Below, in pieces: positions 9,184-51,712 of a DNA stretch of 64,000 bases. Position 1 is the stretch's first letter. Each line of letters begins with the position of its first letter. Made by a program: the position numbers and the translations under genes. Below the pieces are notes generated by a model. The model saw only the letters and a list, made by a program, of their open reading frames with translations, made no database searches and was not told where the DNA came from. This stretch comes from Escherichia coli (lineage in GTDB: Bacteria; Pseudomonadota; Gammaproteobacteria; Enterobacterales; Enterobacteriaceae): NCBI RefSeq assembly GCF_013122565.1, contig NZ_CP053258.1. One strand, written 5' to 3'.

Positions 9184-9704
9184 ATAATATGCTCTCCATT
9201 CATTGTTTTTATGTTTCCATAGAAATCAATACATCAGATAATTCATTTTGATTAAGAACGACCCAGAAAGTATATTTAAAGGTGAATGGCAAAGCGTGAT
9301 GAAGATCGCAGATTACTTTTACACCCGGGTGTGGAGGTATCGTGTTTCAAAAAGTGTGTCTATTTTAAATATCACTCATTGATTTATAGACATTTTTTCC
9401 TTATAAAAAAACACTAAATTCTGTACAAGAATATTTTGTATCTTCTATTACTTTCTCCAGTAATAACTCACCTTTCAGGTATAACTTAAATCTACTTGTT
9501 CATAATCTCAATTTTTGTAAATGAAAAGGCACATAAGAGTTAAAATAAATAATGAATTAAACATTAATTACGCAAAAATGCGAGGCGTCTTCAGGATTAG
9601 AATCGATAAAACAGAATGGGTTAAAGAGAGCGATATAATAGCGGCGGGTGCTTGAGGCTGTCTGTCTCAGGCATTAGCTGAACGGCAGATAGAGAAAAGC
9701 CCCG

Positions 9705-9770
9705 AGTGATATTTTACTATCAACCCGAGGCCTCCTATATGCAGAACACATGTAGAGTGCCTCTTACTGA
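9705..9770 (-). ncRNA. sokC: Putative sokC antisense RNA of the hokC/mokC toxin-antitoxin locus
   Basis: Placed by analogy with hok/sok organisation (antisense RNA overlapping the mok initiation region); the boundaries were not determined from the sequence. Confidence 0.3.
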
Positions 9771-9948
9771 CCGTAAGGTCAAGGAGAAGAGAGCAATGAA
9801 GCAGCATAAGGCGATGATTGTCGCCCTCATCGTCATCTGTATCACCGCCGTAGTGGCGGCGCTGGTAACGAGAAAAGACCTCTGTGAGGTTCACATCCGA
9901 ACTGGCCAGACGGAGGTTGCTGTTTTCACGGCTTACGAATCCGAGTAA
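9739..9948 (+). CDS. mokC: MokC, overlapping regulatory reading frame of hokC
   Basis: 69-codon frame (MQNTCRVPLTDRKVKEKRA...) ending at the same stop as hokC. Confidence 0.65.
   Translation: MQNTCRVPLTDRKVKEKRAMKQHKAMIVALIVICITAVVAALVTRKDLCEVHIRTGQTEVAVFTAYESE
9796..9948 (+). CDS. hokC: HokC (Gef) small membrane toxin, type I toxin-antitoxin
   Basis: 50 aa, MKQHKAMIVALIVICITAVVAALVTRKDLCEVHIRTGQTEVAVFTAYESE, matching Hok-family toxin. Confidence 0.9.
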   Translation: MKQHKAMIVALIVICITAVVAALVTRKDLCEVHIRTGQTEVAVFTAYESE

Positions 9949-10024
9949 GAGCAACGGCGGGGAGTGATCCCCGCCACTTTACAGGTGCTCGCATATCTTC
10001 AACGCACCCTATTTTTACCCAGGC

Positions 10025-10048
10025 CTGCCCACGAGCAGGCTTTTGGGG
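10025..10048. terminator. Hairpin between convergent hokC and dnaJ
   Basis: GCCTGC-ccacga-GCAGGC followed by TTTT on the + strand. Confidence 0.4.
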
Positions 10049-10051
10049 AGG

Positions 10052-11182
10052 TTAGCGGGTCAGGTCGTCAAAAAACTTCTTCACACCATCAAAGAAGCTC
10101 TTTGAGCGCGGGCTGTTGTGCTCGCCGGTTGGGCCACCGAAGCTTTCTTGCAGCTCTTGCAGCAGCTGTTTCTGCTTCTCGTTCAGGCCTACCGGTGTTT
10201 CGACGACAACGCGGCACAGCAAATCACCCTGTGCGCCACCGCGGACAGACTTGACGCCTTTACCGCGCATACGGAACAGCTTACCGGTCTGGGTTTCGCC
10301 AGGCACTTTCAGTTTGACGCGACCATCAAGGGTCGGTACTTCGATTTCACCCCCCAGCGCCGCCATAGCGAAGTTGATCGGGACTTCGCAATACAGGTTG
10401 TTGCCTTCACGCTCGAAAATCGGGTGCTGTTTAACCTGAACCTGAACGTACAGATCGCCTGCTGGTGCGCCATGCTCGCCCGCTTCACCTTCGCCCGCAA
10501 GACGGATGCGGTCTCCAGTGTCCACCCCTGCCGGGATTTTAACGGACAGCGTTTTGCTGCGCTCAACACGACCATGACCATGACATTTGTTGCACGGATC
10601 TTTGATCAGCGTACCGCGGCCCTGACAGTGTGGACAGGTCTGCTGCACGGCAAAGAAACCCTGGCGCATCTGCACCTGACCAGAACCATGACAGGTCGGA
10701 CAGGTCTGCGGCTGTGTACCTGGTTTTGCACCGCTACCGTGGCAAACGTCACACTCTTCCAGAGTCGGAATGCGGATCTCTTTGGTCACGCCACGTACAG
10801 CTTCTTCGAGGGTGAGCTCCATGTTATAGCGTAAATCAGCACCGCGCGCCGCACGTTGACGACCACGTCCGCCGCCAAAAATATCGCCGAAAACGTCACC
10901 AAAAATATCGCTGAAGTCTGCGCCACCGCCAAAACCGCCGCCGCCCATGCCACCTTGCTCAAACGCAGCATGACCATACTGATCGTATGCCGCACGTTTT
11001 TGTGAGTCGGTCAGAACTTCATAAGCTTCCTTGATCTCTTTAAATTTCGCCTCGGCCTCTTTGTCACCCTGGTTACGGTCCGGGTGGTATTTCATGGCCA
11101 GGCGTTTGTAGGCCTTTTTGATTTCACGCTCTTCCGCTGTTTTGGAAACGCCTAAAATCTCGTAATAATCTTGCTTAGCCAT
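10052..11182 (-). CDS. dnaJ: Chaperone DnaJ (Hsp40)
   Basis: [21 protein letters not shown]..., with G/F-rich region and four CxxCxGxG zinc-finger repeats; 376 aa. The track ORF extends 10 codons upstream. Confidence 0.97.
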
Positions 11183-11270
11183 CTTTTTTAAATTGCCCCT
11201 AGATGAATGCACGGGCGGAGAGGAAATTCCCCTTCGCCCGTGTCAGTATAATTACCCGTTTATAGGGCGA

Positions 11271-13187
11271 TTATTTTTTGTCTTTGACTTCTTCAAATTC
11301 AGCGTCGACAACATCGTCATCTTTCGCGTTGTTTGCAGAAGCATCAGCACCGGCAGTCTGCTGCTGGGCATGTTGCTGCTGGGCGATTTCCATCAGTTTC
11401 TGGGAAACCTGTGCCAGTTCCTGCATTTTCGCTTCGATAGCGGCTTTGTCTTCACCTTTCAGAGCAGTTTCCAGTGCAGTCAGCGCAGACTCGATAGCAG
11501 TTTTGTCGTCAGCCGGCAGTTTGTCGCCTGCTTCTTCAACCTGCTTACGGGTGCTGTGCAGCAGATGGTCGCCCTGGTTGCGAGTCTGTACCAGCTCTTC
11601 AAACTTACGGTCAGCTTCGGCGTTAGCTTCTGCGTCGCGTACCATTTTCTGGATTTCATCTTCGTTCAGACCAGAAGAAGCCTTGATGGTGATCTTCTGC
11701 TCTTTACCGCTGTTTTTATCTTTCGCGGAAACGTGCAGGATACCGTCAGCATCAATATCGAAGGTAACTTCGATCTGCGGCATGCCGCGCGGTGCCGGGT
11801 TGATACCATCCAGGTTGAACTGACCCAGAGATTTGTTATCAGCCGCACGTTTACGTTCACCCTGCAGCACGTGGATGGTTACCGCAGACTGGTTGTCTTC
11901 AGCGGTAGAGAACACCTGGCTGTGCTTGGTCGGGATAGTGGTGTTTTTCGCGATCAGCGTCGTCATCACACCGCCCATGGTTTCGATACCCAGAGACAGC
12001 GGGGTAACGTCCAGCAGCAGTACGTCTTTCACGTCACCAGTCAGAACACCACCCTGAACAGCAGCACCGATTGCTACAGCTTCGTCCGGGTTAACGTCTT
12101 TACGCGGCTCTTTACCAAAGAACTCAGCAACTTTCTTCTGAACCATTGGCATACGAGTCTGACCACCAACGAGGATAACGTCGTCGATATCAGATACGGA
12201 CAGGCCAGCGTCCTGCAGTGCAACTTTCAGCGGCTCAATGGAACGGTTTACCAGATCTTCAACCAGGCTTTCCAGTTTCGCACGAGTCACTTTGATGTTC
12301 ATGTGTTTCGGACCGGTCGCGTCTGCAGTGATGTACGGCAGGTTAACGTCGGTCTGCTGAGCAGAAGACAGTTCGATTTTCGCTTTTTCTGCCGCTTCTT
12401 TCAGGCGCTGCATTGCCAGCGGATCGTTGCGCAGGTCAATGCCCTGATCTTTCTTGAATTCTTCAACCAGGTAGTTGATCAGACGGCTGTCGAAGTCTTC
12501 ACCACCCAAGTGTGTATCACCGTTGGTTGCCAGAACTTCAAAGGTTTTTTCGCCGTCAACTTCGTCGATTTCGATAATAGAAATATCGAAAGTACCACCA
12601 CCCAGGTCATAAACCGCGATAGTACGGTTGCCAGTACCTTTGTCCAGACCGTAAGCCAGCGCAGCTGCGGTTGGTTCGTTAATGATACGTTTTACTTCCA
12701 GACCAGCGATACGGCCTGCGTCTTTCGTTGCCTGACGCTGAGCATCGTTAAAGTATGCCGGTACGGTAATAACAGCTTCAGTTACCGGTTCACCCAGGTA
12801 ATCTTCAGCGGTTTTCTTCATTTTTTTCAGCACTTCAGCAGAAATCTGCGGCGGTGCCATTTTTTGGCCTTTAACTTCGACCCATGCGTCGCCGTTATCA
12901 GCAGCAATAATTTTGAACGGCATGATGGAAACATCACGCTGTACTTCTTCGTCCTGGAAGCGGCGGCCAATCAGGCGTTTAATCGCAAACAGGGTGTTTT
13001 GCGGGTTCGTCACTGCCTGACGTTTAGCCGGCTGACCAACCAGAGTTTCACCATCCTGGGTATAGGCAATGATAGAAGGCGTGGTGCGATCGCCTTCGGC
13101 GTTCTCCAGCACACGAGGAGTGGTGCCATCCATAATCGCTACACAAGAGTTGGTAGTACCCAGGTCGATACCAATTATTTTACCCAT
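11271..13187 (-). CDS. dnaK: Chaperone DnaK (Hsp70)
   Basis: 638 aa, [21 protein letters not shown]..., full-length match to E. coli DnaK as recalled. Confidence 0.98.
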
Positions 13188-25015: not shown

Positions 25016-25041
25016 GGTTGTTACCTCGTTACCTTTGGTCG

Positions 25042-25077
25042 AAAAAAAAGCCCGCACTGTCAGGTGCGGGCTTTTTT
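25042..25077 (-). terminator. thr attenuator hairpin
   Basis: Minus-strand transcript AAAAAAGCCCGCACCUGACAGUGCGGGCUUUUUUUU between thrL and thrA. Confidence 0.8.
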
Positions 25078-25095
25078 CTGTGTTTCCTGTACGCG

Positions 25096-25164
<69 letters not shown>

Positions 25165-51444: not shown

Positions 51445-51712
51445 CATGCCGGATACGGCCTACGGTTCGGCACAGACTTGTAGGCCTGATAAGACGCGTC
51501 AAGCGTCGCATCAGGCATTGTGCGCCAACTGCCGGATGCGGCGTGAACGCCTTATCCGGCCTACGGTTCGGCACAAACCTGTAGGCATGATAAGACGCGA
51601 CAAGCGTCGCATCAGGCATTATGCGCCGACTGCCGGATGCGGCGTAAACGCCTTATCCGGCATTGAGCGCCAACTGCCGGATGCGGCGTGAACGCCTTAT
51701 CCGGCCTACGGC
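51445..51712. repeat. BIME / cluster of at least four REP elements
   Basis: Tandem alternating GCCGGATGCGGCGTGAACGCCTTATCCGGCCTAC and GCCTGATAAGACGCG..GCGTCGCATCAGGC palindromes between convergent yjjW and yjjV. Confidence 0.85.

Follow-up and report, generated by a model that had tools for sequence, protein, structure and literature searches.

We examined the hokC/mokC toxin locus and its surroundings in a stretch of Escherichia coli DNA of 64,000 nucleotides (hereafter the window), which runs in the reverse orientation of the K-12 chromosome. The locus lies next to the convergent gene dnaJ, and its genes and immediate neighbours are as follows:

9739–9948, plus strand: mokC, 69 aa, sharing both the reading frame and the stop of hokC; Shine-Dalgarno (SD) sequence GAGG at 9726–9729.
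9796–9948, plus strand: hokC toxin coding sequence of 50 aa; ATG at 9796, TAA stop at 9946–9948.
10052–11182, minus strand: dnaJ, given for context; stop codon at 10052–10054, start taken as Met, based on the list of open reading frames and the annotation of relatives.
11183–11260, minus strand: tpke11 small RNA (Rfam), in the dnaK-dnaJ spacer.
11271–13187, minus strand: dnaK.

The HokC product (MKQHKAMIVALIVICITAVVAALVTRKDLCEVHIRTGQTEVAVFTAYESE) was 100% identical to K-12 HokC in the protein comparison, with one synonymous difference between the two genes (at 9828), and it was also identical across the phylogenetically diverse E. coli loci that we compared. The same RefSeq protein, WP_000809168.1, represents hokC in K-12 and in 6 out of 9 other E. 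coli loci examined. The overlapping mokC frame was open down to the hokC stop, so that both genes are intact as originally proposed, and its product differed from K-12 MokC only at residue 2 (Q2 in the window, L2 in K-12), a site (position 9743) that is polymorphic among E. coli. The distance from the hokC stop to the dnaJ stop, predicted at about 100 bp, measured 103 bp. Two mechanical open reading frames, one of 80 aa starting with GTG (9706–9948) and one of 95 aa in antisense (9667–9954), were rejected because the ATG at 9739 with its SD matches K-12 mokC.

HokC matched the Pfam HOK_GEF family (PF01848) with 85.5 bits (cut-off 22, E = 1.8e-24), covering profile positions 1–42 of 42. The Rfam sok family (RF01794) matched positions 9646–9798 with 117.6 bits (gathering score 59, E = 1.6e-27), and this score and E-value place the match far beyond chance. 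Orthologous loci adjoining dnaJ carry the RefSeq annotation mokC, and the locus was present in 5425 out of 5426 complete E. coli genomes, at 95–99% identity. A hok-like frame with RNA motifs could arise by chance resemblance or as an annotation artefact, and the small size of the frame is the only point in favour of such an origin; given the two family matches and the conservation of the locus in E. coli, we assign it a negligible probability. The range first proposed for the locus, 9700–10051, covers the coding part but omits the promoter and the 5' 54 nt of the mRNA, which begins at 9646 and includes the tac element and stem-loop I.

Two further observations concern the hokC coding sequence. 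The motif TACG at 9934–9937 (codon Tyr47) is conserved in the window and in all the aligned homologues; UACG is the reported site of A-to-I editing by TadA in hokC, hokD and hokE, changing Tyr to Cys, with ~9% editing in K-12 hokC (PMC12214031). In E. coli strain E07 (L006) we found a natural nonsense allele of hokC, in which codon 3 has changed from CAG to TAG (equivalent of window position 9802) and for which RefSeq annotates a shorter Hok/Gef protein with a later Met start. E07 illustrates how a point mutation can inactivate a locus that is free of IS.

Neighbouring island and other features of the window

On the other side of the locus, an accessory segment of 4.0 kb (5521–9533) separates nhaA from hokC. 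It contains three genes:

5535–6815, minus strand: protein of 426 aa with an IS1/IS1595-type N-terminal zinc-binding domain and no Pfam match.
6909–8438, minus strand: sulfatase.
8422–9183, minus strand: OmpK/Tsx-like porin.

In K-12, 88 bp occupy the place of this island. We recovered the island in 1271 out of the 5426 complete E. coli genomes, and 1051 of those 1271 matches had only 80–90% identity, whereas the core on either side is much better conserved (~98%).

Elsewhere in the window, the following RNA features were recorded:

25041–25160, minus strand: thr operon leader (Rfam).
51483–51706 and 59376–59458: several copies of naRNA4, a REP-type repeat (Rfam).
59598–59684: a single tRNA-Leu(CAG) gene, beside yjjZ.

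Many E. coli genomes have two or three tandem tRNA-Leu genes annotated at the place matching the last of these, and the lone copy may reflect copy-number reduction or assembly collapse.

Promoter and antisense RNA

Two features related to transcription of the locus were assigned:

9634–9639, plus strand: putative −10 box (TATAAT) of the hokC promoter, read from the sequence, 6 nt upstream of the presumed +1.
9693–9747, minus strand: predicted sokC antisense RNA of ~55 nt, with a 5' tail, a terminator-like hairpin and a U-run.

The placement of TATAAT relative to +1 parallels that of the R1-type hok promoter (TATGAT-GTGCCC-GGCGC), which is consistent with its assignment as the putative −10 box. 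Neither reading of the sequence nor a consensus scan gave a convincing −35 box for hokC; thus, the promoter is probably weak. The consensus promoter and terminator scan returned no full sigma-70 match and no canonical terminator on the plus strand of the locus, and its settings are too strict for a locus whose hok promoter lacks a −35 and whose hairpins are followed by short T-runs. On the minus strand it gave a single hit resembling a promoter and a single one resembling a terminator, as many as chance would yield, and both were ignored.

The promoter-proximal region (9604–9633) occurs among E. coli in two haplotypes that differ at 10 positions. The window has the K-12 haplotype. The other haplotype, found in four E. 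coli loci (L004–L007), has TG or AG directly before TATAAT, with an extended −10 in L004 and L007.

The boundaries of sokC (9747 to 9693) follow the K-12 sokC annotation and are presumed to hold in the window; they fall inside the Rfam RF01794 match. In the predicted RNA fold the 5' tail is single-stranded and complementary to the mokC start region, and the hairpin (−22 kcal/mol) is followed by CUUUUC. A putative −35 box, TTGACC, was located at 9782–9777 on the minus strand, and the sokC promoter region (9749–9790) is identical to that of K-12. Judged by its sequence and modelled fold, the predicted minus-strand RNA of ~55 nt is SokC.

Predicted structure of the hokC mRNA

The elements of the hokC mRNA carry the names used for R1 in the summary given by PMC9841398, and the R1-type hok reference was taken from an IncFII plasmid (L003). 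We identified the following, all on the plus strand:

9646–10043: predicted full-length hokC mRNA, ~398 nt; 5' end placed by homology, 3' end placed at the terminator hairpin.
9646–9657: tac (translational activator) element, at the 5' end of the mRNA; pairs with fbi in the full-length RNA and with ucb (9697–9703) in the 3'-truncated RNA.
9697–9705: ucb (upstream complementary box); pairs with the mok SD region in the full-length RNA and with tac in the truncated RNA.
9955–9977: GC-rich 3' hairpin, CGGCGGGG-AGTGAT-CCCCGCC, just 3' of the hokC stop; also the empty IS186 site.
9997–10009: fbi (fold-back inhibition) element, complementary to tac and downstream of the K-12 IS186 point.
10021–10042: terminator-like hairpin, AGGCCUGC-CCACGA-GCAGGCUU, followed by UUGGGG, in the spacer of the convergent genes hokC and dnaJ.

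The 5' end at 9646 is the start of the Rfam RF01794 match and aligns with the 5' end of R1 hok mRNA (GGGUGCUUGAGG in one and GGCGCUUGAGG in the other). The RNA of 398 nt had a minimum free energy (MFE) of −166.3 kcal/mol, compared with −123.8 ± 5.0 for shuffled sequences (z = −8.5). Both the MFE and the centroid structures contained a tac-fbi helix of 12 bp with one bulged C, and in both the mok start region (~9737–9758) paired with the 3' UTR (~9977–9996); in the full-length fold the mok SD was held by ucb (~9697–9705). When we folded the RNA of 335 nt that ends after the 9955–9977 hairpin, the 5' end paired with ucb, and the SD/start region and a downstream box (dcb) formed a separate hairpin. 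The same switch, from tac/fbi to tac/ucb and SD/dcb, has been described for R1 hok (PMC9841398).

These predicted structures were well conserved in relatives. When 8 homologues from three genera were aligned, 94% of the cells were paired against 36–46% in slid controls, a percentage inflated relative to those controls since the structure had been taken from the window's own sequence. The alignment also contained 17 pairs with compensatory double changes, a number reached by none of 500 shuffles; 6 out of the 17 were located in the long-range helices that join the mok start region to the 3' UTR. Except for one change from G.U to A-U, the tac element did not vary among the 8 homologues, the tac-fbi helix was kept in all 8, and fbi was conserved in all the relatives examined. 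Thus the fold-back elements, predicted to be undisturbed, pair in the MFE fold and are nearly invariant in relatives.

The helix of the 9955–9977 hairpin was invariant in the 8 homologues, and going by the modelled folds this hairpin is probably the barrier that halts 3' trimming. The 10021–10042 hairpin showed 3 compensatory pairs in the Pseudocitrobacter and Citrobacter homologues, and it was missed by the strict terminator scan because its T-run is short. In its account of Pedersen & Gerdes 1999, a passage of PMC3562002 gives the hokC transcript of strain ECOR24 as ~330 nt, which fits the predicted trimmed form (335 nt) and not the full-length estimate of 398 nt.

The IS186 insertion of K-12 and the empty site of the window

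Aligned to K-12 BW25113 (L001), the window was collinear over 9534–9971 and again from 9960 onwards, with few SNPs. Between these two blocks K-12 carries an element of 1337 bp with IS186 terminal repeats, labelled in RefSeq as "IS4-like element IS421 family transposase" and flanked by a 12-bp target duplication, GGGAGTGATCCC. The duplicated sequence corresponds to 9960–9971 and is present as a single copy in the window. With the element and one of the two duplicated segments taken out, the K-12 sequence becomes that of the window, the few SNPs aside. The IS186 that was said to lie between dnaJ and hokC in K-12 is therefore placed to the base, and across 9960–9971 the window is collinear, an empty site rather than the K-12-type disrupted allele; the alignment to K-12 revealed no IS elsewhere in the locus.

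The insertion point falls in the loop of the GGGG-N6-CCCC hairpin, 11–23 nt after the hokC stop. IS186 is said, after work by SaiSree et al. in 2001, to prefer targets in which a G-run and a C-run enclose N, and the GGGG-N6-CCCC motif of the 9955–9977 hairpin is consistent with that preference. In strain 1409 (L013), a copy of IS186 follows another hok gene, one that lies between cysH and the CRISPR array/iap, and the motif at its insertion point, G4-5/N5/C3-4, is similar. Taken with the insertions at the hokC site itself, this case makes hok 3' hairpins look like recurrent targets of IS186.

In K-12, IS186 deprives the transcript of its terminator, of fbi and of the 3' segment engaged in long-range pairing. 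Our mapping of the K-12 junction agrees with a passage of PMC3562002 according to which the IS insertion disrupts fbi and the normal processing of hokC. The inactivation of K-12 hokC cited in the original prediction is likewise on record: passages in PMC12214031, PMC2654758 and PMC3562002, all citing Pedersen & Gerdes 1999, state that hokA, hokC and hokE of K-12 are inactivated by nearby IS elements.

Outside the IS, the window differed from K-12 by 5 SNPs within the mRNA (positions listed: 9718, 9743, 9828 and 10034) and by one in the promoter region (9614). Such differences raise the question of a copy that is free of IS186 and silently inactivated by regulatory point mutations. All of the SNPs lie outside the tac, ucb and fbi elements, the SD and start of mok and of hok, and the 3' hairpin. 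The polymorphisms at 9718 and 9743 recur in other strains, and at 9614 the window has the majority base, K-12 being the odd one out. The changes found only in the window among the compared strains were those at 9828, which leaves the codon synonymous, and at 10034, a base in the terminator loop. With the predicted folds canonical as well, silent inactivation of the window copy is very improbable, and the 3' elements, as the original prediction held, are intact.

Frequency and ancestry of the IS-free state

The spacer between hokC and dnaJ was uninterrupted in 3791 out of 5426 complete E. coli genomes (70%); the empty site is thus the majority state in E. coli. In the remaining ~1634 genomes the match breaks at query position 412, which corresponds to window position 9971. 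The K-12-type IS186 junction was fully matched in at most 841 genomes, and the junction of the opposite orientation, for which a synthetic query was used, in at most 953. Both counts are upper bounds because IS186 also follows other hok loci (e.g. in L013), which match the query at ~90%, and the two counts together exceed the 1634 interrupted genomes. ATCC 8739 carries IS186 inverted, at the same site and with the same duplication. Since both orientations occur at one site, IS186 must have entered it at least twice.

In a scan of species representatives, IS-free hokC abutted dnaJ in E. albertii, in Escherichia sp. E1V33 and in the GTDB representative of E. coli, while homologues in Pseudocitrobacter and Citrobacter youngae were located elsewhere in the genome. 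A 20-mer scan also pointed to two Nitrospira MAGs and to Salisediminibacterium; in BLAST these were word matches of 20–31 nt only, and they were discarded as unrelated. The IS-free hokC of the Escherichia relatives indicates that the IS-free arrangement is ancestral for the genus, in agreement with the original prediction and with the sequence restored by removing the IS from K-12. The same prediction had treated the absence of the IS as noteworthy, and this did not hold: most E. coli genomes share it, and an IS-free hokC is already known, that of ECOR24, described by Pedersen & Gerdes in 1999 according to a passage of PMC3562002.

Comparison with known hok/sok systems

The closest described system is hokC/sokC of ECOR24 (Pedersen & Gerdes 1999, Mol Microbiol 32:1090), which a passage of PMC3562002 presents as the same chromosomal locus, free of IS and with fbi contiguous with the mRNA. 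Judged by this description, it is essentially the same entity as the locus of the window. The K-12 counterpart, hokC (gef) with sokC (sof), shares the HokC protein, all but one residue of MokC and the neighbours dnaJ and nhaA, and differs from the window in carrying IS186 (insL1) at 9960–9971.

The hok/mok/sok system of plasmid R1 (parB) is the more distant model. It has in common with the window locus a toxin of the Hok family, an upstream mok frame (in frame with hok in the R1-type sequence of the IncFII plasmid, as here) and a cis-antisense RNA over the mok start. At the RNA level the likeness extends, in the folds predicted for the window, to the tac/fbi closure, the GC hairpin after the stop, and the tac/ucb and SD/dcb stems after 3' trimming. 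The locus of the window differs from R1 in being chromosomal and vertically inherited in Escherichia, in a stem-loop I that is 18 nt shorter, and in a divergent toxin (50 aa in HokC against 52 aa in R1 Hok). Unlike for R1, no post-segregational killing is reported for the chromosomal hokC homologue in a passage of the preprint bioRxiv 10.1101/2025.08.07.668861.

Proposed mechanism and activity

We are highly confident that the segment 9634–10043 represents the hokC/mokC/sokC type I toxin-antitoxin system of the E. coli chromosome, in an ancestral state that no insertion interrupts; most E. coli share this state, which has already been characterised, and the locus probably has little activity or is active only conditionally. 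The computed folds and the homology with hok/sok of plasmid R1 lead us to propose that the locus would work as follows. The weak promoter would give an hokC mRNA of ~398 nt, closed by the pairing of tac (9646–9657) with fbi (9997–10009), with the mokC ribosome-binding site buried against ucb. In this closed form the full-length mRNA would be untranslatable and also inaccessible to SokC. Slow exonucleolytic trimming from the 3' end up to the GC hairpin at 9955–9977 would then remove fbi, after which the 5' end would refold onto ucb and the mokC start would form the antisense-target hairpin (SD/dcb). Two outcomes would be open to the refolded RNA. SokC, an RNA of ~55 nt made from the other strand over the mokC start, may bind it, and the duplex would be degraded; otherwise mokC would be translated and, through the coupling of hok translation to the mok frame that we propose on the R1 pattern, the membrane-damaging HokC of 50 aa would be made. 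In K-12 and in ~30% of other E. coli, IS186 in the loop of the GC hairpin would leave the body of the mRNA separated from fbi and from the neighbouring segment that takes part in the long-range pairing.

The absence of IS186 had been taken to mean that the module is potentially functional, and here the published record points the other way. A passage of the same preprint (bioRxiv 10.1101/2025.08.07.668861), citing Pedersen & Gerdes 1999, reports that the IS-free hokC of ECOR24 showed neither post-segregational killing nor activation by rifampicin. By analogy with this close relative, in which the classical phenotype was negative, it is doubtful that hokC of the window is functional. Since the sole published test of an IS-free hokC gave no killing phenotype, hokC of the window probably has little physiological activity or is active only under some conditions.

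A stronger reading would make the intact locus a fully active module for killing or growth arrest, serving for example in persistence, in abortive phage infection or in stabilising the 4-kb island, with the IS186 insertions of other strains as selected disarming. Several observations fit it: the regulatory elements are all undamaged, with covariation in their support, HokC is identical across diverse E. coli, and the locus is kept beside dnaJ in E. albertii. Expressed HokC is toxic (bioRxiv 10.1101/2025.08.07.668861), and one copy of R1 hok in the chromosome is enough to kill when Sok is absent (PMC9841398). The recurrence of IS186 at one site, in both orientations and in ~30% of genomes, has been counted on the same side, but it is equally explained by a GGGG-N6-CCCC hot spot, with no need for selection. 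The negative phenotypes reported for ECOR24 in the passage cited above weigh against full activity, as do the existence of natural nonsense alleles such as that of E07 and a promoter that has no −35. Also against it stands the absence of the island from most IS-free genomes (1271 genomes with the island against 3791 that are IS-free). We therefore consider full activity unlikely and retain the reading of an ancestral locus of probably low or conditional activity. A narrower version, in which IS-free hokC/sokC would be active under particular conditions (phage exclusion, persistence or retention of the nhaA-hokC island) and the capture of IS186 in two orientations by ~30% of genomes would be selected disarmament and not mere site preference, appears less likely still, and we mention it as a long shot.

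The existence and structure of IS-free hokC, and the inactivation of the K-12 copy by IS186 through removal of fbi, have been known from publications since 1999. For the biology of E. coli, the comparison makes K-12 an atypical strain at the hokC locus, and the base-level map obtained here, with the IS186 point, tac, ucb, fbi and the 3' hairpin, could guide tests of a native, uninterrupted chromosomal hok.
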